From the NCBI GenBank assembly GCA_964187785.1, contig OZ076409.1:248001-312000 (forward strand): a DNA stretch of 64,000 nt, read 5' to 3'. This DNA comes from Amphiscolops sp. MND2022 (taxonomy: Eukaryota). The notes beneath the pieces were generated by a model, which worked only from the letters and a program-made list of their open reading frames with translations, was not told where the DNA came from and made no database searches. A program made the position numbers and the translations under genes. How positions within the stretch are numbered: position 1 is the first letter of the stretch; the number at the start of each line of letters is the position of its first letter. Below, one piece after another: positions 20,831 to 64,000 of this stretch.

Positions 20831-20892
20831 GTAAGTGCACGTGCACCTGTTTGCTCTTCATTCCCTGATATTGGCGGCATCTTCCTAGGAAG

Positions 20893-30414: not shown

Positions 30415-30422
30415 ACGCTTGA

Positions 30423-41000: not shown

Positions 41001-41060
41001 TAAGACCATGTCATTTATTCCACCCCCCCAGGTAAAAAGAATTTGAAAAGAATCTTTAAC

Positions 41061-41486: not shown

Positions 41487-43931
41487 TCTTCAACTGATAA
41501 AGTTTGGTACATAGCGATAAATTTAGTAGCCTTGTTTGCTGCTAATGTCAAAAGAGCTGTAAAGACAACCCTATAGGTTTTTACGTTCATTTAACAGTTG
41601 CAATTTGATAGACAATGGCTTTGGGAGAAAATGACGGAAATATCCAAAACAAATTGATCGAAACAATGCTCGAATTATCATGGCTGTCATTTCGTACTCG
41701 ATTATTCGGGTCCCATGGTTTTGCAAAGGTTTGTCGATCTCTGGCACTAAACCACAAAGTTTTCTTATGCTTCCAGAAGTAGAGGGGTGACTAAAGTGTC
41801 CGCCCTTAGGGTTTTTTCAGCACTATGCGCCTTTTTTGGCGCCGACTTTTTACAAGAAGCGTCTTTTTCTTACATAAAAAAATTCATACTGGAATCGAGA
41901 AGGCTCACCTCTTTAAGCAATGGCCCTATATTTTTTTTTCAAAAGAAGTGGCCATCCCACCAAGGCTTTGTAAAAAGGCGGTCTATGTCCCACTAAGTCT
42001 GCTTTGTTCAACTTGAGAAATATTTGTGATACTATCACATTTGAACTACAGTGATATACAAAATATGATTGAACGAATTGGAATTAAGTTGCCGTAGCAT
42101 ATTAGAGTTTACGTACAAATCCAAGTGACCGAGTATTATACCTCCCGCAAAACTGCAAAAATATTTTGTTCTAGATCATTTCAAAAAGGCCTCAATATTT
42201 TAGCACCAGAGTTTTGGGTGGATCCGGAATTTTCTTGGTCCAGTTAGGGTTAACAAGCTACAGAAATAGAATTCAAGACATCGATAGATACTTTCAGCTT
42301 CTTCATCAGACTCCGAATCTTTTGCTCTAACCATTCGGCTTTTAATTCTTATTTGTTTACTTTAACTCATTCATATGGCGAACCTTTTATGTCCCACCTA
42401 ATGCATGTCCCACCAAAGCCTAGTAAAAAGGTGTCTATGTCCCACCAACGCTAGTTGCCTCAACGCCTCAACTCTTATTGAAAAATTGAGAAACTTTCAC
42501 TTGAATAGCTTTTGGGAGATTTTTGTATAAGATAGAAACGGAATTAGTTCTTTTTTGAAATGAAATACTCTTTTTAAATTCCAAAACATTTTTGTAAACT
42601 AGATAAAATTCTAAGAAATTTTAAGCAAAGGAGTTGCGATATTTTAGAACTAACTGTACCCAGGGGTGCAAAATAAATAGTTTATTGATACATAATTTTC
42701 AATAAATACAAAAAAATTATTTATTTTAGCCCAAGGATTAAGTCAATATCCAACCTGCCTGAGCGACTATTTAGCTCCGTTCGTGCCGTTTTTATTGATT
42801 ATCGATAATTTTGTCTTATTAGTGAAATTGTTTTATTAGAGAACAAAAAGTGCTTTCGTGTTGTGGGGGGAACACCAAATGAGATTGCAAATTTCTCAAA
42901 AACTGTCGAATTTTCCGAAATATGTTAAAAACAAAAGTTTCTTGGATTTTTGTCTAGTTTCCACTCGTCTAATAACCGGTAGATAAACAAAAACTAATCA
43001 AAACTGTTTGGCAAAAATTAAAAACTTCGGATCTTTTTTGTTCATACCCCCCTTCCCCCCCCCCCGCACAGTAAGCGCGGAAACTTTAATTCCCCACCAC
43101 TATCAGCGATGAGTTTCAGTTGCAGTTAGAGTTATAAAATACTGCAATTTGATTGTTTGTTACTATTAATTCAATCAAAATTTCATTTGTCCGCTTAACT
43201 GGTAGGGAATAAACAGAAAAGGTTCAAAACTTGGTTGACAAACCAACTTTTACATAGAGAGGTATTGGGAGCTAGTTTCCCCCAATATTTGCCATAGAAG
43301 TTTCAAAAAAACAAATATAAACTAGGTTAAATTTTGAGAAACTTTTATTTGAGACATTTTTCTTGAATATCAATAGTTTCAGAGATATGGGCAGAAAAAT
43401 TAGGTGTTCCAAATATTATTACCAATTTGTGGTTCCATTCTTTTATCACAGGACTGTATTACCTTGTACATGTAAGCTATAGTTTTAGGAGCAACATGTA
43501 CATGTAAATTAAATAAACAAAGGCAACTTGGCAGACCCGTTGCACGTATGCTCAATCTCATTGCGCTTCTTTCCGTCGTTCAATGAACTTCAATTCTCCA
43601 GCTATGCAACAAGCTAGCTTGAGAATCAAAATAGGCGTGCTTTTCGTGGTCAATATAACACCTTTTCATGCTCAACCACATTGCGTTTCTTTATAATTTC
43701 TTTTCTGGATCTGATTATAACTACCACAAAATGTTGTTTTGCTGCTGCGTTCGGATAGGGTCCAGTTTTATAGGTAATGGAGGTTCATGAGGTAGGTATA
43801 TATCTAGTAACCGCATCTCTTTAAAAATTGAATTAAAATTTTTGCGCTTACTATGGGGGAAGTAACAGAAAAGAACATATTTTGGTTTCAAAACTTAAAT
43901 TACCTTGGACCATATGGTAGGGTGTCACGAA

Positions 43932-44356
43932 CAGGGATATGCAATAAAATATTGCAATACTATTGCTTTTACGCAGCAAAAACTTAATATTTTTTGGCCT
44001 GCTGAATAAATTATTACAATTTTTGGTTTTGAAAAATTATTAATTGCAAATTTTTTTGTCAAAACGCAATATTCAGAATGTTAATTATCATCAGGAATCA
44101 ACAAACTTTGAACAGTTTGACTATTTTTTAATGCAGAATAATGAGGTTTGTATATGCAGTTTTCAACGCCTGTTTACGCATTACTCCACAGAAATATTAA
44201 TATTAAATAATTTAGAAGTTTGACCCAGTTTTTCCGCAGTTATTTTTATAGCTAACTCCTGAAAATTAATTTTAAATAATATTTACGTCAAGGAATAAAT
44301 TATTTTGAAGAAATATTGCAGTTATTTTGCAGTTAATTATTTATTGCGTATCCCTG
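43932..44356. mobile_element. hAT-type MITE
   Basis: TIR CAGGGATATGCAATAA / TTATTGCGTATCCCTG; perfect 8-bp TSD GTCACGAA. Confidence 0.9.
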
Positions 44357-44696
44357 GTCACGAAGCAGAATATTCACTAATTCTAAAAATTTCAACGCAA
44401 ACGATGTCGACATAATGGTATTTGAACCTTGTGTCTTATTTTTCTACAGTTTGGGGGGGGGATTGATGACATGGTCCATTACCTTGTAATCATGTTTAAA
44501 TGTCAATATTCAAATAATCAATAACAATTTTTTCAAAAAGTTTCTACTAAAACAGAAAATCAACTGAACAAATATTTGAAACAATTACACAAACAACTAT
44601 TTTTTTATAAATGAATAGGCTGATACAAATGGAAACAAAAAACACAATAAGTGCGTGCAATTAGAGTTTTATGTTAAAGAATGATTTGTCCAAAGA

Positions 44697-45038
44697 CTAG
44701 TCAAATAGTTTTTCGAAAGAAATCTCCTTGCTGGACATAAAGCACAGCAGTTCTTCCAGTAGTGGATCCTTGTTGTCCAGAGCATGGCAGCACAGCACTT
44801 CGTACAAGTCCTTGAAACTTTTTGACTGAGGGTGAAGGTGTATGTTGAATTTGGTTGGGGTCTTTTTCACGGGTAGCGGATGAGAGCGGTTGAATTGAAT
44901 TCCAAAGAAACAAACTCTGATGACTTTTCCTCTGAAGGTCCAATATATTTTTGTGATTGTAACTACCTCAATATCGAGGTTTTTGAGCTCTTGTGGAACT
45001 ACCCACTGTAAGTTCAAAAATAGTTTGTCGCAAGGCAT
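44697..45038 (-). CDS. Hypothetical protein (113 aa), no recognised domain
   Basis: ATG-initiated, non-repetitive and less AT-rich than its flanks; CCAAT boxes at ~45343 and ~45375 upstream. Confidence 0.45.
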   Translation of the reverse strand: MPCDKLFLNLQWVVPQELKNLDIEVVTITKIYWTFRGKVIRVCFFGIQFNRSHPLPVKKTPTKFNIHLHPQSKSFKDLYEVLCCHALDNKDPLLEELLCFMSSKEISFEKLFD

Positions 45039-47795
45039 CAGTAGATTAGGTGTTACAGACTAGACTAAACAGACTGAGTTCAAAGAGACTGAGAAAGAAC
45101 TGGAGTTCCACAGTACCCCTTCCAAAAACGTCCTAGCCACAATTGTCTCAAAATTATTCGCGAGTAATTATTCGGTGTTCAGTTGTGATATAGTTCAAAG
45201 TGAATTACTTTGGTAACCTAACCGGCTATAGATAATCAAGTAATTAGGAACAGCAAAGTCGGAAACGATTTGAAATCAAAAAATTGTAAGTGGGTCAAAA
45301 ATTCAAAAAACTAAAACCTGATGTTTTGCACGTTGCTCTCAACCAATGAAATGAGCGCGTGAGACCTTGATCGGCCAATGAGATTTGTTCATTTGCTTTC
45401 TTTCGCGTGCTATGTTGCTTCTTCTAGAATAACTACTGCATATCCCCACCTTATGCTCCACCAAGTACCATGATTTGAACAGGTTTTTGATCAGGTATGA
45501 ACCGCATCCTCGGAATGAGACGGAGAAGTCGCTGTTATCGTTGTATGTCCCACTAAGAAAGGTATATTTCTTTGGTGATTGACCTCGTTTTGTCCATAGT
45601 GCGTCATTCTAACATGTTGTTGTTTTTGTTATGAATAATTCTTATAGTGGGTCAATTTGGTAAAAAGTCTATGTATGTAGTAGAAATAAAGAAGCATGTG
45701 TCCTGGAAATGTTGTAGAATTGCGTTCTAAAATACGAGTAGAAATTATTTATTAACTATTTGTGTTTTTTTTCAAAACTATTTATTCAATTCTACATATA
45801 TTTTGTTTTAATAAAGCTATTTTAAAATACTGTTATTGATTGATTATAGCATAGACTACAATGAATAGACTACACCCAGTTTTTGTAAGATTACCTTAAT
45901 AAAAACACCAGCCTCAGAAAGTCAAAAAATTAGGAACATTTTAAGGACACCACCGAGGCCAAACTAGAAAGTGACAGCCCGTTTTTAGAAAAAAAATCGT
46001 TGAATCGTCTGTCAATAATGCGGTTGATAAAAACTTTCCAATGCATGTCGAACCCATTGAGTATTTAAAATACGACGCTCACGCGCAGTGAGAGACTAAG
46101 GGTACCACGTGTGTAACAATATAATGAAAAATAAATATAATATATAAGATATTAATATAAAGGTTAATTTCAGGATATTTTTTACTTGGCCCTGGTGGGT
46201 CTTGGCGTAACAACTGCTGGCTGAGAAACTGTCCTCATTTTGTTCCATTGTAAGAGGCTATTATGTAAATGTTAAATGAAACGATTTATTTTTAGAACGA
46301 TGGAATAATATTTTCTTTTCGAATCTCGAAATACAAGTTTTCACCAGCCAAAAACATTCCGCTATAATGAATTGCGTCGTCAGCCAATTGAATTTTGTCG
46401 CAATAAATGCAGTATGGTTTCAAATGCCGGCTATCTTTGTATCGTTTCCTTAGAAAAATGTTCTAAAAGAATTACAATGTGATCAGGGTTCCTGAGAAAT
46501 GTTTTTGAACGAAAACACTATGTGTGAAATGGCGTCCCACTTATTATGTCCCACCTTGTGCCCGTCCCACCAAGGCCTAGTAAAAAGTGGGGTCTATTTC
46601 GTACACGACCAATTGAATCTGAGTGAGAATTCTTAGAGGATTGTGTGATTTGAGGAAAGCAGACTTAGTGGGACATTGACCCCTTTTTAAATAAACTTTG
46701 GTGGAACGGGCAAAAGGTGGGACATGAAAGGTGGGAACTCCTATGAGACAGTGAAAATTGACAAAAATTGGAAAAGGACTGAGCGAAGGAAACGCAATGT
46801 GATTGGGTTGAGATTTGATGTGTATTGTTTTGTTAGACATATTACCTAAAAGATTCAACCGTGGGGAACCAAGAGGGGCATTTTGTCTGTTCTTCCCAGT
46901 TCAAGAGGAGAGGAAACGCGTTAAACATGAAATCATTTATGATTTAAAAAATGAATCATTTAAAACTTTACAGAATTGTCTGACGTACATATATTGAAAG
47001 TTAATTTTCCGACCCTCAAAAAAAATTCTGAGACCAAGTAAACCAAAAAAAATCTGTAGAGCATAAAAAGAACTCAAACTCTTTCAGGAAAATGATTAAA
47101 AAGTAATTTTCCACAACTTTGAAAAAAAAATGATTTTTCAATTTTTTGCTTCCAAGTTGCAGATGGTACAACGCCGCGAACCCATAATGCATTCTCAATT
47201 GATGTAATATGGTATTTAGATTTCAGCACTGCTACTGATTTTCACAATGACACATTTTCGAAATGTTGGGCCTTTGTTAATGTTCTGATCAGAAATCACA
47301 ACATACAATAACACTAGCCCAAAATTTTGTAATTTTAAAGAGGCTCTCAGTTCGGGGATCACATAGTGTCACCCTTTAACAAGACCCACGACGAGAACGT
47401 GGCCTCTGTAAGGTCTCAAACAGGGGTGTTAAAAATTATCGTTTAGTCAAATGACAAAATGAACCAAAATGACAAACCAAAATGACGAACCAAAAATGAA
47501 CCAAATGACAAAATGAACCAAAAAGAAATGCACTGAAAGATTGAAACCAGATGGGTGAATGGACTAAATGGCAGTAATGACTTAAGATTGATTTAAATAA
47601 CAAAAAAGGGAGACTTTTAACACCACATGCAAAATCCAATGAACCAAAAAAAAATGCACTGAAAGATTGAACCCAGATGGGTGAATGGACTAAATGGCAG
47701 TAATGACCTAATGTTGTCCTAAATAACAAAAAAGGGAGACTTTTAACACCCCTGTCGTAAATTAACTAATAAAATAAACTACAAAATTTACAAAA

Positions 47796-48020
47796 CTAAG
47801 AATATACAATGTTATCTACAGGTATTCTACATAATGGACATTTAAATACATCTGAATATACAAAAAGGGAATCTAAACAGTCTCTACATGCTAAATGTAA
47901 GGAATGTTTTCTATGAAAGCTCTGTAATTCTACTGATCTAAAGTCCTCTAAACAAATAATACATCTACTATAAAGTTTTGTTGGCCTCAAGTTTTTGGGT
48001 CTCATCTTGCATCTTGACAC
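47796..48020 (-). CDS. Small atypical RING-finger protein, copy 2 (ATG at ~48005)
   Basis: CIIC...HRKHSLHLACRDC...KCPLCR; all putative metal ligands are conserved with copy 1. Confidence 0.75.
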   Translation of the reverse strand: MSRCKMRPKNLRPTKLYSRCIICLEDFRSVELQSFHRKHSLHLACRDCLDSLFVYSDVFKCPLCRIPVDNIVYS

Positions 48021-48226
48021 CTGGAACCTCGTGAAAAAATTAGTTGACCACTCTGCATCCGTTTTTTAAAAGCAGTTGTGTACCCGTTTTAGTTTCAAAA
48101 CAAGCTTCAAATTCGAATAATACAAAAATCTCTTGGGAGAATATCAAATGAAAAAAGTTAGGTTGCACCCGGGTTCTAACCAGTGACCGCTTGAGCTGCA
48201 GCCGGATGCATTAAATCTAATAATCT

Positions 48227-48958
48227 AATAATATAAATAATCTAATAATAATCTAAGGACCAGATTTCTTTGCCCCCCTTTTTTTCTTCATAAGATATTG
48301 CTTTTTTGATGTTCTTTGAAAAAACACGAAAAGTTCTGAATATCTGAATTATTCGTTACTATTGCGCTTTCTTATTGGCCGAGAATTCAACCAATTAGGC
48401 ATCTGAATCAAAAGTACAAAGTTTCACACTTTTGAATGATGATTTAAGTTGATTCAAATATTATTTAATTTCACAGTATTATATAATTATTATATAACAA
48501 ATATCATTTTAAAATAATTTTAAAAAGTGTGGGGGTAAATTGTTGTTTTTGCAATTAATTATAGTAACGGAACTTTGTCCTCCCCCCCTCCCACACTTTT
48601 CAAAATGTTGTTTATGCAATTGAATATAGTAACGGAACTTTTTCCTTTCCCCCCACACTTTTTAAAAATATTTTAAAATGATATTTGTTATATAATAATT
48701 ATATAATACTGTGAAAATAAATAATATTTGAATCAACTTAAATCATCATTCAAAAGTGTGAAACTTTGTACTTTTGATTCAGATGCCTAATTGGTTGAAT
48801 TCTCGGCCAATAAGAAAGCGCAATAGTAACGAATAATTCAGATATTCAGAACTTTTCGTGTTTTTTTCAAAGAACATCAAAAAAGCAATATCTTCTGAAG
48901 AAAAAAAGGGGGGCAAAGAAATCTGGTCCTTAGATTATTATTAGATTATTTATATTAT
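48227..48958. repeat. Fold-back with ~310-bp inverted arms
   Basis: 48227-48535 is the reverse complement of 48649-48958; the spacer carries a short direct duplication (ATAGTAACGGAACTTT twice). Confidence 0.92.
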
Positions 48959-49089
48959 TTTAGTACTGTGACTCTCCTCCCTCCCTTGTTTCCTCAAAAA
49001 AAGGACAGTGACTCAGTGTTTCCAGTCAAAAGGGTGTTTCCAGTCAAACACTTAAAAGATCAAAACAGCAATAAAAATTCGCATTCCAA

Positions 49090-49172
49090 ACCCGCCCAGT
49101 CTGGGATTCGAACCCCGGTTTGCGATGAACAAGCCCGAACAACCAGCCCACTTAACCACTGAACCACCGTCC
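49090..49172 (-). repeat. tRNA-derived sequence (SINE head or pseudo-tRNA)
   Basis: Minus strand has A box TGGTTCAGTGG and B box GGTTCGAATCC; no convincing cloverleaf. Confidence 0.55.
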
Positions 49173-51619
49173 CCGTTATCATTTCGATTTCAGTTGTTTA
49201 TATATTTGATCAACTTTGATCGAAGTTTCCTCGGAACTTTAATTTAATTTATATCATACTTTAATTCTTATTCTGATGAATAACCAATGGTCATGTTTGA
49301 TTTTTCTGCATAAAATTGTCACAAAGTAATTTACTTCTTGAAAAGTGTCCTCATTATGATTTTATCAATAATTCATTAATTTTTACCTTTTAAACTAATT
49401 AAAATAATTAAAACTCTGAAAAATTTTGATTTATCTAAGATATTTTGATTTTCATCTTAATCAATAATTCATTAATTTCTGCTTTTTAAACTAATTAAAA
49501 CTCTAAAATTTAAAAAAATTAAACTCTAAAAATAAACTTCCTCTACTGAACTTTTAACTAGACTTTTAATAAACAATCATGGAGAGGGGTTGGGGTGATG
49601 GGTTGGGCTGATGGGTTGGGGTGATGGGTTGAGGTGGGGGGATGGGGTTGGCTGCTTATTTTTCTTTCCTCACATTACCTCAGATAATTATCAAAGGTTT
49701 AGATGTCTTTCACCTGTTAGACTCATTTTCACTCATTTAGAATTAACACCTCTCTCTCAACACCTCCTTTCAACCTAAAAACCCCCCATCTTATGACGTT
49801 GATGATAGTTGAATTCAATGGACAAATTCGAAATAGGAATCCTAATAACTTTCTTCGAATTCTTTAAGTTTATTTCTTCAAAAATTCATAAGTTTGTTCA
49901 GTTAATTCTATAAGTTTTCGAAGAAAATAGCAACACTACCTAAAACTTTTAACCCCGGAGTAACCCTTTAAATGTTCTTACCGTATAAGGAGTAATAGAA
50001 GTATAATGGCAAAGAAGGCAAGTATTAATGGCAAGTATTAAAGAAGTATTAATGGCAATTTAATAATGGTAGAAGTTAATTTGCCAATGAACAATTTTTG
50101 CCAATAAACTGCATCGAATGTAGACCAAATAACATAAGTGCAAATTTATAATTTAATTTAATGACAGATTCAATGACATTTCATTTAATGACAATTTCCT
50201 TGACAAATGACAATGGATTTCATTTTCAAATTTTTGTAAGACTATTTTTGTTTCGGTCTTGTGAATTTGATTCATTTAGCTGAACTGAGTTTCACAAATC
50301 ATACGAAGTAAATAGCTATTATGTTATTTGGTCATCATAAGAATTGTTTGCTGTTTGCCTTTTGCGATTTACAATGCGAACGTTACAATACAAACGAAGA
50401 AATTGGAATTGAATTGAAATGAATTCAATTGAACGAAGAAATTGGAAATCCGCTTACGAACCATGCCGGGACTGAACGAAATTTTCACAATTAGTTGGTT
50501 TCTCTATTTCTCTAAAGTATATCTGTTGAATAGCAAATTAGTTGGTTTCTCTATTTCTCTAAAGTATATCTGTTGAATAGCCATTTGATATATGGTTTCT
50601 TGAAATATGGAATTATTATTACTTGTACTGTTGGCTACAATCCCTAGTAAAGAATATACTATATTCACAACCAGTTAGCTGCTGTTATTGAAGGAAATCT
50701 ACAGCAAGTTCAATTCAGACTAACTGGATCCCAGAATTCAAATAAACATTCGATTGTCTGTTTGTTTGTCAATATACGTTAGGAAAGCATGCTGTTATTC
50801 TCAGTGAACGAAAAAATGGAGGGAAAACCAAAGCATGCCAATATTTTTATTCATTTTTGTAGATCTTTTAAGCAGAGTTGGCTGATTAAAATCAAATGAT
50901 TATAAAATGTTGAATACTGTTGAAAAGTATATCTGTTGTTAAAATTGATGTGATCATTCAAATTCGAAAAATTGTTCAAATTTCAAATCAAAAGTGGCAA
51001 TCCAGAACCTTGACAAACAAATCTTTTTCAAGCATCAGATTGGGTAATGCTCAACGTTTCGTAAAATAAAGGCAAAATAAAGGCCCCTTCAAAGTCATCT
51101 CCCTATGGCTACAATATCCCAGCTCTCTGCATTTTTCGCATGCAAGATTGAGTTGAAGTTTTTCCAGTATGTGACTAAAGACTTTGTATTCAAATGATTG
51201 GTAACTTTATTTAAAAGCTATGAGAGAATGCATTTTGTCTGGGGGTGCGAGAGGTGCAAGCCCTCGGAGTCAACTCTCCCTATGGCTACAAAATCCTCCC
51301 TATGGCTACAAAAAAACGTACGCCTTCCGATTATCATTTGATTCCTCCTCAGAACCTAATACTATTCATTTCAGTTCATTTCAATACGTTTCGCAGAGAG
51401 TTCCGAGTATTCACAGTTTTTGCATTGCAAAGTGGTTCTCAGATTTGTGATCTGTATTACTACTTAAAAAATCACATGCTACTTGGACATAGTTTTAGTA
51501 GTAAATCTGATACCATTTTGCTCTTGGTAGTAGTAGGTGCATTTCGGTCTTGCGATTTTTCGAGGTCATGCAAAGTGGTACACGATTTTGGAATTGTGGT
51601 GCAAAATGTCACCGCGAAC

Positions 51620-51856
<237 letters not shown>

Positions 51857-52122
51857 AATAGACTTTAGGGCGTAGCCCTAGGAGGTTTCCCCCTTTATTA
51901 CAGATTATTGACATCATTTTTCCGAAATCAAGAAAACGGGAACAAAAATTATTTTAAAATGTGAGCGCAGAACATCCGTTTTCCAATTTTTGTTTGTGGC
52001 CACTCTTCTTTCTACCTTTCCAAGGTAGCTTGCTTTTAAAACATGAAATGGAGAATTAGATGAAAAAGGTCAATTGATTTTGAAAAATGTAAACAAAAAA
52101 CGACAAATAGTAACATGAAATA

Positions 52123-52527
52123 CTATCTTGTTGTTCGGCAGTTCAATATATAACACGGCTCGTCGTCCAGAGCCCCAGGTTTCCAGTATTCATTGGGTGC
52201 ATTGAAACATATCACGGACTCCATTACTTGTCCATTTGGTAGTATAGCTCTTTCAATGAAAGAGAACTTGACTGTTACTGGTTTTTTGTTCCTTTTTGTA
52301 TTTTCACTCCGTAGAGAAGAGATTAGAGTGAGCGAGGTTGTTGGGGTTGTCTCAGGAATGGGTTTGCTTCTTTTGATCCTCCAAGCTCTCGGATGTGTCG
52401 GAGAGGTTTGATTGGTGGTTGAGTCGGCAAAATGCACGTTTTTTCTGTGTGGTGGTCCATAATTTGAGAGCAGTTCATCTATCGGACGAATACACGACCT
52501 GATTGGCATTGCTGAGGGATTGAACAT
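52123..52527 (-). CDS. Hypothetical protein (134 aa) with RVxF-type PP1-docking motif
   Basis: ATG-initiated unique ORF containing PIRSCIR ... RKNVHFAD; a CCAAT box (plus-strand ATTGG at ~52814) and a tandem repeat lie upstream. Confidence 0.5.
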   Translation of the reverse strand: MFNPSAMPIRSCIRPIDELLSNYGPPHRKNVHFADSTTNQTSPTHPRAWRIKRSKPIPETTPTTSLTLISSLRSENTKRNKKPVTVKFSFIERAILPNGQVMESVICFNAPNEYWKPGALDDEPCYILNCRTTR

Positions 52528-52823
52528 GATAGGGTTGATGTCAGCTCGGAACTGGGCTTGCTATGTGCTCTTTGACCAGCTGATGAATGTAGACTTCCTT
52601 GGAATCCTTTCAGCTCTATGCAGTATAATCTGCAACGCTAGTGTCGTTTGAACTAGCTATATCAATACTTTTGTGTTGCTATGAACTTATGAATTTGATT
52701 GTATTTTGTAAGCCTTGGAAATCTTCTTCCTTCTTAGGCGACAAAACAACGCAATACTAACTCATGGAATGAGAAATGACGTTGAAAAAAAATTGGATAA
52801 AAATTTGAATTTGATTGGTTGTT

Positions 52824-53450
52824 GCACTTGGTGGGACCTGTCACTACTTTACTAAGCATTGATGGGACATTTTAACGCAGTTGTTTGTTTTCATTCACCA
52901 AGTAAATCAGTGATTGCTCTCTCTCTTGATTGCCAGCTTGGATGCCAAGCTTTCAACTTGGTTCATTCACCACCAAACACCTTATGGGACTGGCGGGGTT
53001 TCTTGACGCTTCTGTTGTTAATGTTTGAAAAACAAATAGGACGTTTTCGAAAAAGCACTTGGTGGGACCTGATACTTTAATTTATTAAGCATTGATGGGA
53101 CTTTTTAACACAGTCGTGTTTGCTTCCATTTACCATGTAAATTAGTGATTGCTCTCTCTTGATTGCCAGCTTGGATGCCAAGCTCTCAACTTGGTTCATT
53201 CACCACCAAACACCTCATGGGGCTGGCAGGGTTTCTTGACGCTTCTGTTGTTAATGTTTGAAAAACAAATAGGACGTTTTCGAAAATGCACTTGGTGGGA
53301 CCTGAAACTGTAATTTACTAAGCATTGATGGGACTTTTACCGCAATCTTGTTTGTTTCTATTCACCAAGTAAATTAGTGATTGCCCCCTCTTGATTGAAT
53401 CCAAACCAACAGCTTGTATGTCAAGCTCTCAACTTGGTTCATTCACCACC
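52824..53450. repeat. ~232-bp tandem repeat, ~2.7 units
   Basis: GCACTTGGTGGGACCTG at ~52824, 53056 and 53288. Confidence 0.95.
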
Positions 53451-55789
53451 CAAAACCGGGATGACTGACATGGGTGGATGACCGAAGTGGATGACTCTCC
53501 TGCTGTAATTGGTAAATTTAAAGGATTGTCCCACTGCGTCAAAAATTTTTACAATGAATTTTTTATTGAATTTTTTGGAGCATACTTTCGAGAATACTAG
53601 TATTATTAAATAATCACATGGTTAAAAAAACGTTCTTTCTAGAAAAACGTCGTTTTTAATGTTTTTTTTTCAATCAAAATAGCGATTTAAATCGATTTTT
53701 TTCCAAAACCGTTTCTCGAAAATTTCTTTCAAAACGAGGGATGTTAAATATTTCAACAAAACGCATCAAAAATTTCAATTTTTCAGCCTTTTTTGGCATA
53801 AGCTCACGTTTCTGAGCTTTCTCGTGAGACAATTTGTACAATTCAACACGCGGCCTTCGACAAAAAATATCAATGAAAAAACCGGCGAACTAATTCCCGA
53901 ATTGAATTGCGATTTAAATTGGTGCGAATTTTTTGACAACCCTGCATTATCAATCCACCTCATTTGCTCTTGTTATTTGGTAATCCACCAAATGAAACTA
54001 TAGTATATGGCAAGAGAATAAAAGATGTGACTGAATAAAAGATGTAAAGAAACGATGTGACTGAGTGTTTGTCCGTTGACGAATCCGCACTCAGCGGGAC
54101 TTAGACCCCTTTTGTACTATACATACTTGGTGAGAATTGAAAAAATACTCTAGCTTGGCCATGGGGGGGCATGGATTTTTTCAGAATCACATTGCGTTGC
54201 TTTTTTATTTTACTTCCATAATGGAAATAAAATAAAAAAAGCAACGCAATGTGATTGTGCGTTGACGACTTGTCAGCGCGCAAATCTCATTGCGTTGCTT
54301 TTTTATCTTATTTCCATAATGGAAGTAAGATAAAAAACAAGCAACGCAATGACGAAGTGGGGGTTCGTCAATGACAAAGTGGTGGTAACAGAGGTGCTCA
54401 AAAATTAATGGAAACTATTATTTTTTAATTGTTCAAAACAGAAAATCCATAAAGTTTACAAATGTTTACATCAATAATGGCCATAATGGCTATTGATGGC
54501 TCAAATTTTCTCATGGCGCAAACAGCTGGAGTTTACAGGAGTTCTGGTATTTGATTCGTAAAATTAACCTTGATTAACACGAATAACAATTATCCTCTAC
54601 AATAAATAATCTTGTATTGTATTCAAATGGAATTTATTGAATTTTATTGATGTCCCTATTTGTTGCGTAGCAAATAAATGAAACTTAAATTGTACATTAT
54701 TTCAGACACTATAGCCTAATCGGTACAGTGCTTGAATTATAAACGCAAGGTCAAGGGTTCGAAACTCGGTATTAGTCGATCTTTGCAAAAACACCAATTG
54801 GTTATACATGCACTTTTGCAAACATTATTCAAAAGAACACTTCGTTTTCAAAACTTTGTATATAGCTATTTGTTTTTAATAATTAAAGTTGATCTTTTTT
54901 TCAGTCGATGTTGCTATGATTTTGAATATGCTATAATCATTTATTGGGACTAAAAATTGCAAATTACAATACATTCTTGCCCTATCTCCTTTAACCGATC
55001 CTCGCGACTGTCAATATCTTTATAATATGTGTTTTCAAAATTGAAACCCAGTTCATTCATCAAAACAGCTCAAGAATTGAAATCGTCTTGTATTCATTAG
55101 AAGTTTGAATATATCAATGAAATACATTCCCTCAATAAATTATCTTTGAAATCAATTTGAAGTATCATCAAGTAAAACACGGGAATTATGAGTGTGACAA
55201 ACATTCTAAGGAATTAAAAGATAAACCCACCCTCTCTTGGCAAATGATTGAAACTTTTCGCCTGAAAATCTCTCTAACTATTTCAATCCTATGTTTAATC
55301 ATTGTACTCAGTAAATGATTTTTGGCTCATAGTCAAATGGGACCATCTGTTTAACTCCGAGGGATGCCAAAAAATATTTCCTATGCACACTGTTCTTCTG
55401 GTAAAATTATTTGACACTAAAAATAAATTATTTGTATTTTATCAGAGAGAAAGTAAGTTATTTGTATTTTTTTTCGCGTTCCATTAAAATACTTTGATTG
55501 TATTTATTGGAATTATTTAGGCAAAAATTATTTTTAAATCATTATTTTGACAATCAATGTATTGTATACAATTATGTCGACATCAATTGTTTTCTTGATC
55601 AAAGTTTCAACGCAAACGATGTCGACAATGGTATTTGTCTTATCCCCCCTGCGACCGCATGATTCGACAAATGTTTTTCACAAAGTCAATATAAAGTCTT
55701 TTTTTTCTACAAATCGTCAAATCAACTTTTGTAATTTTTACGTTATTATTTGTTCGCCCTGCTCATCAAACACCAGCATACATCATCTT

Positions 55790-55910
55790 TTTCCAATCTG
55801 CCAAATTTCGGCTATTGTGATTGGTTGATCAACCAAAATCCGGCTAACGTGATTGGTCGATCTTGAGCTGCTGAGACGAAGTCAAGTTACAGTTTCAGGT
55901 TCAGTTTGTG
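55790..55910 (+). promoter_or_regulatory. CCAAT-rich putative promoter of the ZnF-JmjC gene
   Basis: CCAATC at ~55793, GATTGG at ~55819 and ~55851, initiator-like TCAGTT at 55901, about 90 nt before the ATG. Confidence 0.45.
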
Positions 55911-55993
55911 TTGAACATTTGTCCCGTGCAGTAGTAGACATTTGGTAAACTTTCTACCACCTTCAATAAAAGACCTAGATTGCAGATTCCAGA

Positions 55994-56079
55994 ATGACCT
56001 TCACTTGTATCAAACTGCTTCAAAGAGTTTGATTCCAACAAGCAATGGTTCTACACGCGTCATCAATCTACATGCCTTG
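55994..56079 (+). CDS. ZnF-JmjC gene exon 1 (C2HC finger 1; one extra base at ~56009)
   Basis: ATG ACC TTC ACT TGT [A] TCA AAC TGC... gives MTFTCSNCFKEFDSNKQWFYTRHQSTCL if one nt is removed; donor G|GTGAGT in phase 1. Confidence 0.65.
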
Positions 56080-56379
56080 GTGAGTTCAGATATTATGTTG
56101 GATTTGAAAAATATTTTCAAAATGAGAAATTTCGAAATTTTTTTGAAGCCAAGTTTTGGGGAAAAGTTTTAGTTTAAACCCCGAATGAAACAAACAAAAA
56201 GAAAACGAATATTTGTTGACTATTGTTTTCCTTTTTCATGCTATCATAAGTGAGGCCCAAAGTAGTGTTTTCTATGTAACTCATGCTTTGCCATTTAAAA
56301 TTTGAACTAATTCCATTTTTATGTTCTTTGATCTTATGTTATTTGAAGATCTAGAGATATTAACTTCATTCTGTTTTAG

Positions 56380-56556
56380 CTCATCAACAACGGAAAACTT
56401 TGAGTATTCATCGCTGTACTTGTCCTGAATGCGGTCTGATTTGCGCCAGCACTGGAAAACTCAAGCAACACCTGTCAAAAAACACTTGTTTGAGACGTCA
56501 GCAAGAAATCAGAGAGCGAGGAATTGAGGCATCCGACTTGTATTCACCAGAACCCA
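56380..56556 (+). CDS. ZnF-JmjC gene exon 2 (C2HC finger 2)
   Basis: TTTTAG| acceptor; CTCPECGLICASTGKLKQHLSKNTC; donor A|GTGAGT; phase 1 at both ends. Confidence 0.75.
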
Positions 56557-58309
56557 GTGAGTTCTTTTCTTGTGAATTCTTGACAATGTAATTTTTACTA
56601 GTTTATTTTTTTAACTAGTGACTTTACCTTATTTCCGTCCCACCAAGGCCTAGTAAAAAGTGGGGTCTATGTCCCACCAACTCTGGTTTCGTAAACGTTG
56701 GGTAAATTAAAATCAGGAGCATTTTGAGTGAGAAAATAATGTAATATTTGAAAAAGAAAATAAAACATAACAGTATAAAACTGAATGAACTTGGTACTGT
56801 CTCACTCAATCAGAATAGGCATCGAATACTTTCCTTTCAAGTGAAATATTTCAAGTCAAGTGGTTTATTAACTTGGACGGTGATGTTGCTCGGCGCCGCA
56901 CTGGTACTATATGAAAACGATATGAACACTACAGTATAGCCCCAGTTTTGCACCGAGACGAAATTCGTCGTGTTACAATTGAAGAATTTCTGATTATTGA
57001 TATAAATTAACGGATCTTGTTTGCTAATACCCACCCCCACCCCACTCACAGGAAAATTTATCTGTCCCCAGAGTGTTTGCAGAAAATTGCCACCTTCACG
57101 GAAATTAATCAATTATTGAATCTAAGCTTTCGAATGTTTCAAACAAAAACTATGAAGTCAGGTTCGTTCCACGCTTGTGTGAACAAGAAAAGGTGATCAT
57201 TGATTGGAAAATGAAGGTTGTCACGCTGCATGAACAACTTGACTTTCACTTCTAAGATCCCGGTCAACACGTAAAATGGCTCTATCCAAAATGAATTTAA
57301 GCAAACTCGTGACCATTACCAAAACTAAATGGGATACTGTTGCCCTTTATCAGTAAGCTGGGATAATTCCTCTGACAAAACAGTGAAAAAACGACTACGC
57401 TGAAAATCCAAAACTTTTAAGTGGGAAAAGGGAAATAAGTTCGCGGGAGCCATTAGCAAACAATATCCAAATTAAACTTGATTTGACATATTTCGACTAG
57501 CACTTTCCTGAGGTTTATATAAAATGCAGTACATATAAGACTCATGATAGTGTCTAGATGATCTACGTTGAGCTAAAAATAGTTCCTTTTTCTTCAATGT
57601 ATCTTGTTATCTTGTTAAAATATCGATGTTATAAATCAATATAATACAGTACAGTGGCGTCTTTGGTGGCGTCTTTGAACCCTTAAACAACAAAAGACAA
57701 CACAAAAATGTCTCCCCTTCTAGATTATTTCAATCGTATTGCAAACGCAACAATAGTTTTTATATTCATTCCCATCAGGATGCTTCTTTATGCTGCTTTA
57801 TTTTCTGCTGTTAGAATAGGCCCCCATTAGAAAAAACTCGAAATCACATCGCGTTGCTATTTCACTTTAAATGACTGAAAATCACGCCGCATTACTATTT
57901 CAATGAAATTCACTGGAGAAAACCACATCGCGTTGCTATTTCAATGAAGTTACTCGAAAATCACATCGCGTTGCTATTTCACCGAAGTTACTCGAAAATC
58001 ACATCGCGTTGCTATTTCACCGAAGTTTGAAATTAGCTATAGGAAAAGCTGCTCTATAGATCGTTTTGAGAGTCAAAAATAGAAGCAGTAAATACTTGAT
58101 TATTCGAGGCCAAGTTTCGAACCCACAATGATAACAAAGCAATCAAATTATTAAATGTAAAGCGGCAAAAAGAACGAAAAAATTAAATAATATTTGACAA
58201 CAATTAATTGCAAACAACAGTAACACAAATAGCAAGGCCTTTTCTCGAAGTTATTTTACTGAAATCAAGAAAAAAATTTAGATCTTATTTCCGAAATAGG
58301 AAATATTTT

Positions 58310-58380
58310 ACCTGTCCGGGAATCGCACCCAAGACCTTATGGTTCGAAAGCTAGCGCACTAACTATTTGGCCATAGCGCC
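58310..58380 (-). pseudogene. Degenerate tRNA-like sequence (anticodon-position TCG)
   Basis: GGCGCTATGGCCAAATAGTTAGTGCGCTAGCTTTCGAACC..GGGTGCGATTCCC; the acceptor stem does not pair. Confidence 0.45.
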
Positions 58381-60088
58381 TTGAAAATGAACAACTAAAA
58401 TTTGCTTTTAATCTTATTGCTTGTCAACAAAGTTACTCGAAAATCACATCGCGTTGCTATTTCAATAAGTTACTCGAAAATCACATCGCGTTGCTATTTC
58501 ACCGAAGGTAGTCGAAAATCACATCGCGTTGCTATTTCACCGAAGTTACTCGAAAATCACACCGCGTTGCTATTTCAGATGAAATTACTCAAAATCACAC
58601 CGCGTTGCTATTTCATAAGAAACTGCTCAAAATCACACTGCGTTGCTATTTCACAAGAAATTACACAAAATCAGACCGCGTTGCTATTTCAATGAAAGTT
58701 TGAATTGTATTTAGAGAATTGATGATTTTTAGGTACTTTCCTGAAACCGGAGTCTTTAAGTCAATGAACTGATTGTACGGTCTCTATATAGTGCGTCCGG
58801 TCTATTAGGAATGGTTTTTCAATTGTCCGGTCCATTAGGAAAGTACCGATTTTTATTTTAAATAGAAAAAATTTTCAATGAAACCATATCAGCATCCGCA
58901 GGAGACTTGGGGGCAAACGATGGATAGAAAATTTTCCAAAAATATTTTTAACTTTGTGAAAATCAAGAAAAAGTGCAAATTTGATGAAAATTGTATCTTT
59001 TCTGTTATTCCCCCCTCCCCCAAAGTAAGCTCGGAAGTTTAATTCCCCACCACTATCAGTGATGAGTTTCAGTTGCAGTTAGAGCTATAAAATACTGCAA
59101 TTCCATCGGTTGTTAATATTTATTCAATGATAATTTCTCTTGGCCGCTTAACGTGGTGGGGGGATTACCAGTAAAGATCCTGAAATTTTGTCAAATTTTC
59201 GTATTTCTAACTTTTGTAATTTTTCTCGCAGAATTTTCAAACAAACATTTTTGTAAATTAGATAAAAGTCTAAGAAACTTTTGTAGCTGACAATGTTAAA
59301 GATATTTGAGTTTTAAATTCGCTATTTTGAGCAATGGAGTTGCGATCAGGGATTTGCATTAAAAGAATATATTATTAATGGATATCCTACATTCAATAAA
59401 TGCATTACTTTGACTGGCATTTTCATTAAATACTCTAACTTTCAAACAACATTAATTAATACATTTATTGTACAATAAATTGCCGAGTTTTCATTTTTTC
59501 CTCGCCGTTGAGCACTTTTTGCACACTTTCTCGGTTACAGAATGAACCATTCTTGGTCATTCTTGGCGCTTATTGAAATAGTACAGTGTTTCATTTCAAA
59601 AATGATTTTCAACATTTTTTAAAAAGGGGACATTTGCTCAGAGCCAGCAGTTGATATAGTTGATATCTGAGACCTATCCATAGATATCTACAGATATGTT
59701 ACAGATATCAAACGCCTCCGCCTGCCAAGTGTTTAACTTTGGTGATCTGACAAGCGGAAGCTGTTGCTCTGAGCCATAGTCCCCTATTCACAGTAAAGTA
59801 ATTGGAATATATATACACAGTACATGTATACATTCCGCGCCGCGCCTCATACCACACTGTTACGAATGAAGTGGCGCTTGAACGTGATAATTGACATTCG
59901 AAAATGATGAAGGGATCTTTTCTGTTAGCACAAAAATTATTAATTGGTAGGCTTGTATTGCATTGCAATACAAAATTACCAACCCCTGGTTCCCCCACCA
60001 ATTTAATACCCCCAGTTAAGAGGTCAAGTGAAATTATCATTGAAATAGTAGTATTAATAATAATATTTGTAATAAAAAAATATTTATA

Positions 60089-60685
60089 CAATAGTGTAAG
60101 AAATAAACTGAACCCTTATTTGTAAAAAAAGAATTGGACCAAAACAAAACTAGCTCTGATTTCTGCTATCATCCAAGTTATTTGAAAATCAAATAAACAA
60201 ACATTCTGAAATTTTGTTGCGCACTTGAAATGTAAGTTTGCAAATAATGAAGAAACTTCTTAATTTCATTTTTGATTGATTGTATTTACTACTGAATTGG
60301 CATAGGGGACATCATTTTGGACAATTTTGTAACATTTGGCACCTAATTTGGAACTTTTATTTATTTGGCAGACACTTCTTCATTTACTGAAGCCATTCAT
60401 TTTTTTTACATTAAGGTAATTGGTATTTTATAGTTTTTGAAAGGGGTTCTCTTCTATTACATTTTATTTACTATTTTAATACGTGGGACACAGCTATTTT
60501 TCGCAAAGATTGGGAATTATGCTTTCGGTTTTAGATTTTTAACCGATAAAATTATAATCACGAGAATCTGCTAACTAAGGCGATTATGCCCATTATCTTA
60601 GACATTCAATTTATCCTTGCTATGTTTACATGCAGTCCAAATTATTTCTCACAAATAAGGGTTCAGTTCTTTTCTTACACTATTG
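60089..60685. mobile_element. Tc1/mariner-type MITE in an intron
   Basis: ~35-bp TIR CAATAGTGTAAGAAATAAACTGAACCCTTATTTGT and its inverse, flanked by TA on both sides. Confidence 0.8.
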
Positions 60686-61547
60686 TAACTCTAACTGCAC
60701 CTGAATAAAACTCATCGTTGATTCTGGGGAAAATTACAATTTTCGCTCTTACTGTGAGGGGGATTGGCTTTGGTAAACAGAAAAGATCCTGATAAAGTGT
60801 TTGAAATAAAAAACATGAGTACAAAATCATTCAATACGTGGAAAACACTTACAATTGATAATCATATAATAAATCCAATAAAGAAGTACATGAATATACA
60901 TTTTATGTCCCACCAAGGCCTAGTGAAAAGTGGGGTCTATGCAAGGTTGTAAAAATAAGTATTTTTAAATAAATATTTTTAAACAGATATAATTATTTTT
61001 CGACTCAAACAGTTTAGTGAACAAACACGGTCAGCTGTTTATAACGGGGCTGTTTATAATGGCGTAAAAATGTTTCATAGCGGCTCTCAACTTTTATGTC
61101 CCACCAAGGCCTTTTAAAAAAGGGGTCTATGTCCCACTAAGCCGGCTTTGCATAAACAAGTGAAGAAGTTTCCTGGAAATGATATGTATTTATAATGATC
61201 ACCAGAACAAAAAGTCTTATTGGTATTCACTGATTACCGTTTATAGGTTTTTTGTACTGATGGTTGATTGAGTGACATGTTGTAAAAAAGCAGGTCCATG
61301 TCCCACCAAGTGCGTTTTGGTCCCCACGGTATTGTAACTATTGAAGCACGGCCTAACACCCAGTCATGCCAGAATTATCAAGATATTGATGAATTGACTA
61401 CATTGAAGACTCATACCAATGAAAGAATCAAACGCATTTAAAGTGATATAAACAAATCACAAACCTAAAAAATTCTACGGGAAAACAAATTCAGATAAAT
61501 ATATAGATGAAAGTCTTTAATAACGTATCAACTAAAACTTGTTTCAG

Positions 61548-62802
61548 AACGTCAGAAGGGCTCATTCGAATGCAATTCTTGTGGGAAGATACTAACGAGA
61601 CATTTCGATTTGCTCCGTCATCGACAAACAAATAAACAATGTAGAGGTCTGCAAGCTAGAACCACATCGTGTATTACAACTCCAGTAGATGTTCCTGTTG
61701 ATGTAACCGGAGATGATGTACCTTCTCCCGAACCCGATGCTGCAACAACTTCTCTCGACAGGACACCCAGAGTTAGCCCTGAAAGGCAACAGTCTGTTCC
61801 TCCCCTAGGAGAACTTTTCGGTGAAACAGTTACTTTTGAAGAAGTAATTGCTTCTGGTGAAGTGTTTCCCCCCGAATTAATAACCCCTCCTAGAGAAAGA
61901 GAGACTGCTCGTGAAGTGACTGCTCGTGAAGAGACTGCTCGTGAAGAAGAGACTGCTACTGAAGAAGAGACTGCTCCTGAAGAAGAGACTGCTCCTGAAG
62001 AAGAGACTGCTCCTGAAGAAGAGACTGCTCCCGGAGGAGAGATTGCTCTTGAAGAAGAGACTGCTCTGAAAGAAAAACAAAAGATACCGGAAATTGAACT
62101 GCCGTATTTAGATTCCTTCAAATGGGGTTCAAACAATCGTTCCAAAGTTGGGTCAAAAAAGTTTTTGGATTTAATTCGAGGGAAAGTACCAGTCACCCAA
62201 AGTTTCACTGTCAACAACCGCCAGGATTTCAAGAACCGAATGACGAGAAGTACACCATGTCCTGTAGTTTTGAGACAAGCTAGGGGCAAACTTGCTGGTC
62301 TTGTTGTTCCTAGTGCCATACACGGTACCTTCCGTAAATTAACTGAGGGAATCCCTTGCAGCAGGAAAGTAAATGTGTGTTTTTCAGCACTCCAGGAAGT
62401 GGAGAACAATATGACCTTGGCAAGTTTTTTGGGGCATCATGAAGACCCATTCCGCGAGCGAGATCTTCATCCAATGAACATCATCGACCTTGACATTGGT
62501 CCGCATCAGAGGACAATGAAACACACATTTTCGATTCCAAACTTGATAAAAGAATATTCTCTGGGTCATACTTACACCTCAAGAATGGATCCCTCAATCC
62601 GAGAAGAGTTTGACTTCACTGCTGGCATCAGCAATTACCTCTTGATGACTGAACAGGAAGCACAGACGGATTGGCATCAGGATTTCACCGGAAGTTCTGT
62701 TTTTTACTTTTTGTTGAAGGGAAGGAAAGAATTTTTCATCGTGGAGCCAACCCAGAAAGCCCAACAGCGTTTTGACGAATGGCGAGAGAGTGAATGGAAA
62801 AG
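61548..62802 (+). CDS. ZnF-JmjC gene exon 3 (C2HC finger 3, acidic repeat, N-half of JmjC)
   Basis: TTTCAG| acceptor; FECNSCGKILTRHFDLLRHRQTNKQC; EEETAP repeats; YLLMTEQEAQTDWHQDFTGSSVFYFLLKGRKEFFIVEPT; donor AG|GTTTGT. Confidence 0.88.
61900..62070 (+). repeat. Coding 15/18-bp tandem repeat (EEETAP)
   Basis: GAAGAAGAGACTGCTCCT units, frame-preserving. Confidence 0.95.
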
Positions 62803-63063
62803 GTTTGTAAAAAGGAAAACTCAGTTTTTACTTCAGTTTAGATTAATAATTGTGATCTTTTTCCTTATTGTTAAGTTGTAATTGGTTATGTGATTGTTGT
62901 CAACAACTGTTAAAAGCTGAAGGTTATGACTGAAGATATTTCCAAAAAAGGGTTTGCTTTTCACGAGTTACAAGATACCTTCAAGGGGCTGAAACTTCTT
63001 AGAAAATTTCCGATGTTTAAAGTAGAAGTTAGTTCTCTCAACTTTGATTAATGTTGTTTTCAG

Positions 63064-63520
63064 CTCCACTTTCTTCGGTTTCCATCGAGATGTCACATGC
63101 TATCATATTGTGGTAGAAGAAGGAGACGCTATCTTCTTACCAAGCCAGTGGATTCACTTTGTTCACACCCCTGTTGATAGCATTGCTTATGCGTGTAACT
63201 TCATTATGGAAACCCACCTCCACCAGAGTGCCCTAGCCTTCAAGAAGGAGCTAGACGCAGGTTTGGCAAGACGTTTCTTGTTCCCAAACTTCCCAGGTTT
63301 GATAGTGATGCAGCTCTACATGGAATGGGCTAATAAAAACCGCGTGAGTCCTATCACGAAAGCCGCCATGCGTGAGATGCTGCAGATCATAAAAGCTGAT
63401 GAGCGACCAACTGGTAAAGAATTTCCGCTGGAAAATCCCTGGGCAGAGTTCTTGTATCGCTATGCAGCAACTGTCAGCGACTTGCATTGGGATGTAATTG
63501 AGGATTGGCTACAACGTTGA
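63064..63520 (+). CDS. ZnF-JmjC gene exon 4 (C-half of KDM2/KDM7-type JmjC)
   Basis: TTTTCAG| acceptor, in-frame join; FFG..CYHIVVEEGDAIFLPSQWIHFVHTPVDSIAYACNF..FPNF; stop at 63518-63520. Confidence 0.9.
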
Positions 63521-64000
63521 GGAGAAACAACAGAGTCCAGAAAGTGCAGCTTGAGGAAGTCTTCAATTTCAGTTTCAAAACTTGATTTTCGGCTCTTTAT
63601 TGACTGATGAACATGCAAACAGTTTGCTTTCTTTATTTAGTGTCATGTGTTTTTTACTTACTGAGCACTTTTGCTTACTTTTTTTACTTACGTAGTAAAT
63701 ACTATACCAGCAGAGGTGTGATCGCTAACAATTTTATCGCAAATCGCTAACATCGCTAATGGCTTGATTTCATCGCTATCGCTACAACAAAATGGGTGGT
63801 TCGCTAACGCTATCACTATTTTAAAAACCTGATTTTCAGAAAGATCATATGAAAATTTCAGAATGTACTTTAAAATTAATAAATTTTGAAGTTTTGGGCA
63901 AATTGTACTTCGCCTACAAAGCCGGGCTCATCGAATAACTGTTCGAAAGGAAAAAGCCAAAATGATGTGTCAAGTTATTCGCAATAATTTTTTGCATTAG

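Follow-up and report, generated by a model that had tools for sequence, protein, structure and literature searches.

A 64,000-nucleotide stretch of the Amphiscolops sp. MND2022 genome (OZ076409.1, positions 248,001 to 312,000 of the forward strand; referred to here as the window) contains a four-exon gene in which zinc fingers are joined to a JmjC domain. This zinc-finger/JmjC gene is cargo of a mobile element and not a host locus, because it is found in at least 151 dispersed places, lies in a unit of about 50 kb with defined ends, and shares that unit with a gene encoding a SET-tyrosine-recombinase. An earlier note on this DNA had taken the gene for a lineage-specific demethylase retargeted by zinc fingers and had proposed a genome-wide copy count as a check. 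The count speaks against a lineage-specific host locus, as do the surrounding unit and the frameshift in the window copy. The explanation that we favor, with moderate confidence, is that the four-exon gene belongs to a tyrosine-recombinase transposon of about 50 kb and that its protein is an element-encoded, finger-targeted, anti-silencing chromatin modifier.

A multicopy gene inside a unit with defined ends

Genome searches were run against the species' own assembly (1.07 Gb), and the copy numbers are lower bounds among the matches listed. When the part of the gene that encodes the JmjC domain (window 62102-62800) was used as the query, at least 151 genome matches were obtained out of 1286 first-look candidates, on all large scaffolds and with identities of 77 to 99%. 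The reading frame was free of stops in 114 of the 150 listed JmjC matches, and 36 carried in-frame stops. Six other genomic copies, fetched with their flanks for comparison, could be aligned colinearly to the window for more than 26 kb, with 98.2 to 99.7% identity over multi-kilobase stretches. With copies that are 98 to 99.7% identical and at least about 150 in number, the element family is young. The JmjC gene is linked to the recombinase: at least 83 of the first 100 JmjC matches listed have a recombinase exon 6 to 13 kb downstream on the same strand.

The unit in the window copy extends from 21921 to approximately 8.3 kb past the window end, a total of about 50.4 kb. The 10 kb that follow the window end are designated L021.

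21921..64000, + strand: in-window part of the ~50.4-kb repeat unit, which extends to L021 ~8312, followed by an A(TG)n tail
21921..21950, + strand: left terminus, TGCGTGTACGAA...TTGGTGGGAC, an imperfect inverted repeat of the right terminus

The left end was located with window 17500-22550 as the query, for which 39 other copies begin to match at query positions 4404-4425. The matches of 36 of these 39 copies begin within query positions 4420-4425, equivalent to window 21919-21924, and those of the other three begin at 4404, 4413 and 4418. A left border at window 23449, indicated by copy c7, was rejected; c7 is truncated, and most copies continue leftwards to about 21921. The right end is common to all eight copies compared: the sequence ...CTTCGTACAC is followed by A(TG)n, with n between about 3 and 27, and then by unrelated flanks. 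The right terminus reads ...GTCCCACC...TTCGTACAC, and the motifs of the left end recur in it in inverted orientation. The two ends therefore consist of imperfect inverted arms of about 28 bp, of which the left begins with TGCGTG and the right finishes with (TG)n. The three copies with both flanks available showed no duplication next to the element. Neither a target-site signature nor an empty site was shown for an element whose left flank is an unrelated repeat of about 290 bp and whose right flank is single-copy. The left-flank repeat, which lies just outside the element at window 21589-21878, is itself dispersed, with 1928 first-look candidates at 87 to 91% identity.

Gene structure, encoded protein and constraint

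The exons of the zinc-finger/JmjC gene and the features that belong to them are as follows.

55801..55862, + strand: duplicated 32-bp motif containing GTGATTGGT, an inverted CCAAT-like box (tandem-repeat call and sequence)
55994..56079, + strand: exon 1, start codon and finger 1, frameshifted in the window copy (AG/GT borders, copy comparison)
56380..56556, + strand: exon 2, finger 2 (AG/GT borders, copy comparison)
61548..62802, + strand: exon 3, with finger 3, the linker, the acidic repeat and two thirds (N-terminal) of the JmjC domain, including WHQD (PDB matches)
61892..62089, + strand: 18-nucleotide tandem repeat coding a 6-amino-acid acidic EEETAP-like repeat (repeat search)
63064..63520, + strand: exon 4, remainder of the JmjC domain (C-terminal, including WIH), helical tail and stop codon (PDB and Pfam matches)

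The four exons had been recognized correctly in the earlier note: in the window sequence the borders of all four are canonical, with AG before exons 2 to 4 and GT after exons 1 to 3. The compatible exon phases that had been claimed hold in the finger frame, in which the joined frame is open to a TGA at 63518-63520. They do not hold from the ATG at 55994 of the window copy, where 12 codons are read before a TGA is reached because there is one extra base between the start codon and finger 1. This excess base, near 56012-56015, cuts the rest of finger 1 off from its first Cys and from the start codon. In the window copy the finger-1 frame of exon 1 begins at 55998, straight after a stop. Where the window copy reads ATCAAACTGC, all six other copies read ATCCACTGC and are free of this lesion. 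With the same exon borders as in the window, an uninterrupted 657-amino-acid open reading frame (ORF) is present in five of the six; the sole broken one, c3, has a frameshifting deletion in exon 4.

Two subfamily copies, s80 and s88, are 80% and 88% identical in protein sequence in the JmjC part. Exons 3 and 4 are open in both with identical splice sites, and intron 1 of s80 is 757 bp compared to 300 bp in the window copy. The finger exons are predicted to be spliced to the JmjC exons on the basis of ORF continuity and conservation. The duplicated 32-bp motif with GTGATTGGT, approximately 130 bp upstream of the ATG, is possibly a promoter element.

The product of intact copies (657 amino acids) consists of three C2HC-type fingers, a linker, an acidic repeat and a JmjC domain that the last intron interrupts. 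The finger patterns are C-x2-C-x14-H-x3-C for finger 1 as encoded by intact copies, C-x2-C-x12-H-x5-C for finger 2 and C-x2-C-x12-H-x6-C for finger 3. The ligand pattern of C2H2 fingers is C-x2-4-C-x12-H-x3-5-H. The Pfam model zf-C2H2 gave E values of 0.014 for exon 2 and 0.021 for exon 3, under the cut-off of 25.2 bits, and the last ligand is Cys, not His. The number of acidic-repeat units differs between copies, with two more units in c3.

On exon 4 of the window, the Pfam JmjC model scored 23.3 bits (E = 9.4e-5) versus a cut-off of 24, and Cupin_8 scored 21.8 bits versus a cut-off of 27.4. In PDB searches, all 14 matches of exon 3 were PHF8, KDM7, KDM2A or PHF2 (KDM7A, E = 9.4e-11; PHF8, E = 2.2e-9), as were 14 of the 16 matches of exon 4 (PHF8, E = 1.3e-10). 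The remaining two were designed helical-repeat proteins (E = 0.0049). The TDWHQD and GRK motifs of exon 3 align with TDFHID and GEK of KDM7A/PHF8, in columns that we take, from PHF8 structure papers, to be ligand residues. WIH of exon 4 aligns with WIH of PHF8. The window subfamily, s80 and P0011, a full-length relative of 595 amino acids from another species, all retain the iron-binding HxD...H residues together with the T and K of the 2-oxoglutarate positions. In s88, G replaces the W of the WIH motif, and the frame is still open. P0011 matched PHF8 in the PDB with an E value of 7.4e-24 and passed the Pfam cut-offs for Cupin_8 (38.1 versus 27.4 bits) and JmjC_2 (25.1 versus 22).

No PHD, CXXC, F-box or LRR domain was detected by Pfam at E ≤ 1 on any exon, or at E ≤ 10 in the relatives P0011 and P0013. 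Thus, the acidic repeat, the JmjC domain with its WHQD, WIH and T/K residues, and a KDM2/KDM7-type domain free of those four accessory domains were all borne out as the earlier note had described them. By these matches the JmjC domain is assigned to the KDM2/KDM7/PHF8 (JHDM1-type) class, and the protein is judged not to be an orthologue of KDM2, KDM7 or PHF8, because the reader domains of those proteins are missing.

The finger-plus-JmjC architecture is rare, with 14 unnamed clusters among 5.8 billion proteins. Clusters at 33 to 51% identity stem from other assemblies. One of them, a related finger, repeat and JmjC protein at 33 to 45% identity, has 18 members on different contigs, and therefore the architecture is multicopy in that other species too.

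The exons differ in how far their sequences have been held constant. Exon 2 of the window differs from that of s80 by 6 synonymous and 2 nonsynonymous changes (omega, the ratio of nonsynonymous to synonymous rates, ~0.09), and both replacements are outside the finger. In the subfamily comparison, mismatches amount to 4.5% in exon 2 versus 18% in the adjacent intron. The product of exon 1 from an intact copy (28 amino acids) is 100% identical in s80. Among the 150 genome matches listed for each exon, 147 were without stops for exon 2 and 147 for exon 1, and 96 of the exon 1 matches were at 100% identity. The omega of the JmjC part, estimated by the Nei-Gojobori method from subfamily copies, is 0.49 to 0.57, a value to which decay after insertion may have contributed. 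These comparisons indicate that the fingers are strongly constrained and the catalytic domain moderately so.

The SET-tyrosine-recombinase gene and other contents of the unit

Four long ORFs lie in L021, beginning approximately 1 kb downstream of the stop codon of the JmjC gene and on the same strand.

L021:477-5810, same strand as the JmjC gene: four-exon SET-recombinase gene (SET, 38-amino-acid repeat, fingers, recombinase)

ORF 1 encodes a SET domain (Pfam, 33.2 bits versus a cut-off of 22.4), and ORF 2 encodes the end of that domain and a 38-amino-acid tandem repeat in 114-bp units. ORF 3 (528 amino acids) has Cys/His finger-like motifs, and ORF 4 is a protein of 280 amino acids, P0016. 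The four join by GT-AG junctions read from the sequence, and the resulting single gene is open in four of the six other copies, with a length of 1339 to 1674 codons that varies with the repeat number. The last recombinase exon of the window copy has a run of eight A's where all six others have seven, which is a second frameshift. The window copy is consequently a dead member of the family, with a one-base excess in exon 1 of the JmjC gene and another (A8 versus A7) in the last recombinase exon. Both frameshifts might in principle be assembly errors, although the lesion in exon 1 is more than a plain difference in homopolymer length.

A search of 1.84 billion representative proteins gave 2383 relatives of P0016 at E ≤ 0.001. 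A SET domain was present in 11 of the 30 relatives scanned and was N-terminal in 6 of them. Weak C-terminal matches to Phage_integrase, below the cut-off, were found in two of the 30 (P0074, E = 2e-4; P0090, E = 5.6e-4), one of which carries a SET domain. Pfam gave no Phage_integrase match for P0016 itself. Two relatives were looked up; both come from fishes and bear no annotation beyond 'uncharacterized'. The same layout of SET domain and recombinase occurs in fish 'uncharacterized' proteins, and the recombinase also has relatives in other animals.

An alignment of 25 relatives shows no variation at R65, K117, H212 and Y221 and hardly any at R186; the first His of the HxxR motif is represented by T183. 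Y221 follows H212 by nine residues, as in XerD. An AlphaFold2 model of P0016 had a pLDDT (predicted local distance difference test) score of 82. The best Foldseek match of the model was XerH (E = 2e-3, probability 1.00), followed by XerA, topoisomerase IB, Cre, Flp and lambda Int. With VIA-align, XerH was matched at a Z score of 11.6 with a root-mean-square deviation of 3.7 over 167 aligned residues, and 71 chains had Z scores of at least 8. Tyrosine recombinases, integrases and type IB topoisomerases make up the top 49 of the 50 entries listed (Z of 8.0 or more).

A PDB profile search found XerH at E = 0.27; phmmer gave no significant PDB match for P0016 or for the SET exon of the element (for SET, none at E ≤ 0.01), and a word-index search of longer proteins with P0016 gave no match. 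P0016 is identified as a tyrosine-recombinase catalytic domain because the catalytic residues are conserved and the fold of the model matches. The SET domain of the relative P0074 is closest to KMT5A/SETD8 (E = 3.2e-25, with the next family at about 1e-13), and the SET domain of the element aligns to that of P0074 with 28% identity (E = 7e-11). BLASTP found no likeness between the fingers of the JmjC gene and the C2HC finger of the recombinase, sequences that are too short for this to count against a common origin.

The remaining 34 kb of the element in the window contain two minus-strand RING-finger exons, which probably belong to additional cargo genes, along with numerous short internal repeats. 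There was no reverse transcriptase, DDE transposase or helicase among the 80 ORFs of at least 62 amino acids in window 21900-55990, where short exons could hide domains. RING, SET and JmjC were the only domains that Pfam detected in those 80 ORFs and the long ORFs of the remainder of the unit. ARAGORN found no tRNA in the element.

28069..28305, - strand: exon-like ORF, C3HC4 RING finger (Pfam zf-C3HC4_3, E = 3.9e-6)
47799..48065, - strand: second exon-like RING-finger ORF (Pfam zf-C3HC4_3, E = 1.7e-5)
22551..23243, no strand assigned: 200-bp tandem repeat (3.5 copies) in the left subterminal region, just within the end, also in other copies
56626..56700, - strand: internal copy of the left-terminal sequence of the element, in intron 2 (repeat families D7 and D16, terminus comparison)

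Just inside the right end there is a 67-bp tandem array with laddered self-matches (L021:7552-8212). Copies of the GTCCCACC-type terminal sequence occur within the element, mostly in introns (56626-56700, 60896-60943, 61099-61150, 46553-46600 and others), which suggests nested short derivatives of the same element family. Tandem arrays of 38 bp at window 23701-23879, 34489-34739, 57836-58027 and 58430-58691, two of them inside intron 2 of the JmjC gene, could be protein-binding arrays or nested short elements. A near-perfect inverted repeat at window 48227-48959, which is also present in other copies, has 221-nucleotide arms that are 99% complementary and 106 nucleotides apart, with outer arms of 98 nucleotides. 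Outside the element, an unrelated repeat family is represented by two inverted copies of about 4 to 4.6 kb (window 3547-7494 and 7639-12239) and has many genome copies at 77 to 98% identity.

Possible roles of the gene and comparison with known systems

The unit is best read as a giant, multigene, Crypton-like DNA transposon moved by its tyrosine recombinase; a DNA transposon of the Crypton kind is indicated because the genes retain introns. Other classes were considered and rejected. A long terminal repeat (LTR) or DIRS-type retroelement was rejected on the grounds that no reverse transcriptase was found among the ORFs scanned and introns are retained, and a Helitron on the grounds that no Rep/helicase was found among them. 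A non-LTR element, suggested by the (TG)n tail, does not fit the size, the introns or the inverted ends, and an endogenous virus does not fit the absence of capsid and polymerase domains from the ORFs scanned.

In the mechanism that we propose, the inverted arms of an excised circle would form a lox-like site around the A(TG)n spacer. Inverted arms around a spacer are the usual layout of a tyrosine-recombinase site. The fingers would direct the JmjC enzyme to the DNA or chromatin of the element, where it would remove repressive lysine methylation, for example H3K9me, H3K27me or H4K20me1. The element would benefit by staying transcribed and accessible to its recombinase. An appealing variant of this mechanism is that the element may carry both a writer (the SET domain) and an eraser (the JmjC domain) of a single mark.

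Several points weigh against this explanation. On the window's own exons, the Pfam scores of the fingers and of the JmjC domain are under the curated cut-offs. It is ORF continuity and conservation that join the finger exons to the JmjC exons, and demethylase activity, substrate, DNA binding by the fingers and an effect on silencing are all predictions. An omega of about 0.5 represents only moderate constraint on the JmjC part and fits a relaxed need for catalysis, and in-frame stops interrupt 36 of the 150 JmjC matches listed. The fingers of the JmjC gene have no BLASTP likeness to the recombinase's own (short) fingers, and a target-site signature and an empty site were not found. A tyrosine recombinase alone does not explain the rise in copy number; the proposed model accounts neither for that rise under a conservative recombinase nor for the meaning of the variable (TG)n.

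It is possible that the JmjC protein is instead a transposition cofactor, an eraser paired with the KMT5A-like SET writer for one mark (e.g., H4K20me1), which would prepare or reset donor or target chromatin. PHF8 is a demethylase of H4K20me1 and H3K9me, and KMT5A is an H4K20 mono-methyltransferase. Consistent with such a pairing, the SET domain of the recombinase family is closest to KMT5A/SETD8 in P0074, to which the SET domain of the element aligns; the JmjC domain is closest to PHF8/KDM7; and the two genes are same-strand neighbors whose linkage holds for the great majority of the first 100 matches listed (at least 83). However, most recombinase relatives appear without a JmjC partner (14 JmjC clusters versus 2383 recombinase relatives), and therefore the recombinase does not need the JmjC protein in general. 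Furthermore, the element's own SET domain has no PDB match at E ≤ 0.01, and substrates are not readable from sequence. We consider this cofactor role unlikely.

The moderate omega of the JmjC part, the stops in 36 of the 150 listed copies and the broken state of both the window copy and c3 would also be consistent with a neutral passenger, a host gene or host-exon chimera that was captured and copied by the element and serves neither the element nor the host; capture of host genes by large elements does occur. However, exon 2 has an omega of about 0.09 with both amino acid changes outside the finger, and the exon 1 protein is identical between subfamilies despite introns of different length and sequence. 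Exons 3 and 4 are open with catalytic residues in subfamilies that are 12 to 20% diverged, and the same architecture is multicopy in another species at 33 to 45% identity. It thus seems improbable that the gene is a passenger.

There is only a slight chance that the JmjC protein acts noncatalytically, by binding heterochromatin proteins in the manner of Epe1, or on a nonhistone substrate by protein hydroxylation. The fingers are far more constrained than the catalytic domain, s88 stays open despite G for W in WIH, and Epe1 of Schizosaccharomyces pombe, a JmjC protein, is reported as a nonenzymatic anti-silencer. Against this, neither the window subfamily nor s80 nor the distant homologue P0011 has lost the HxD...H residues or the T and K that occupy the 2-oxoglutarate positions.

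The finger-targeted, anti-silencing modifier that we favor can be extended to a broader and more tentative proposal. The units may be recently active cargo transposons of about 50 kb moved by a tyrosine recombinase, a metazoan counterpart of Starships, with a chromatin toolkit of a KMT5A-like SET methyltransferase joined to the recombinase and a separate finger-targeted PHF8/KDM7-like demethylase, which would write and erase marks on their own copies or target sites, in order to escape silencing and control mobility. A large and widespread group of animal transposons that has so far gone without a name might then be defined by the SET-recombinase fusion (2383 relatives). Transposons are usually viewed as targets of silencing by histone methylation, and an element that edits its own chromatin state would be open to testing in a genome with many intact, near-identical copies. 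If the proposal is correct, giant cargo-carrying tyrosine-recombinase transposons extend from fungi to probably an animal, and many 'uncharacterized' SET-recombinase proteins in animal genomes gain a name and a mechanism. For annotation, we recommend repeat masking of the more than 150 copies, which should not be tallied as a demethylase gene family.

Crypton DNA transposons were reportedly described by Goodwin et al. in 2003. They have no terminal inverted repeats or LTRs and carry short direct repeats of 4 to 6 bp at both ends. The element resembles them in that a tyrosine recombinase is the sole recognizable transposition enzyme, no reverse transcriptase was found, introns are present and no target-site duplication was seen; its ends fit a model of excision as a circle. 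It differs in its size of about 50 kb with at least four genes, in the fusion of the recombinase to SET, and in ends that comprise imperfect inverted arms and a variable (TG)n, beyond 4- to 6-bp direct repeats. Cryptons are described as simple single-ORF elements (PMC9406493). The searched passages of the Crypton paper of Kojima and Jurka (2011; PMC3212892) contain none of the terms 'SET domain', 'methyltransferase' and 'JmjC'. With the terms used, the literature searched yielded no account of a SET domain fused to a recombinase or of a JmjC gene carried by a transposon, and neither did targeted searches of passages in PMC9406493, PMC3212892, PMC4738411 and PMC6431247.

Starships of fungi are likewise giant cargo-carrying DNA elements, mobilized by a tyrosine recombinase that is encoded at one end. 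In contrast to a Starship captain, P0016 has no DUF3435 domain (Pfam, E ≤ 10); the host here is nonfungal, the copy number is far higher and the cargo consists of chromatin enzymes.

The protein shares with PHF8, KDM7A, KDM2A and PHF2 its JmjC sequence, the HxD...H iron residues and the T/K 2-oxoglutarate positions. The host orthologues have a PHD finger in KDM7, PHF8 and PHF2, and CXXC, PHD, F-box and LRR in KDM2, whereas three N-terminal C2HC-type fingers and an acidic repeat are found here and PHD, CXXC, F-box and LRR are not. The present gene is multicopy and transposon-borne rather than a single host orthologue.

Epigenetic factors borne by transposons include VANC of VANDAL elements, DNA methyltransferases in retrotransposons, and TET/JBP genes with KDZ transposons. 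As in these cases, a mobile element would encode a factor that acts on its own epigenetic state; to our knowledge, none of them is a JmjC demethylase or a SET-recombinase fusion.

REF6 of plants, to which the gene had been likened at the outset, is a KDM4-type host gene with C-terminal C2H2 fingers. The present JmjC domain is of KDM2/7 type, and its fingers are N-terminal and end in Cys in a transposon-borne gene. Both are JmjC enzymes with their own zinc fingers as the likely targeting module. The analogy is reasonable for how a site is found, with the difference that the likely target here would be the chromatin of the element itself and not host genes.

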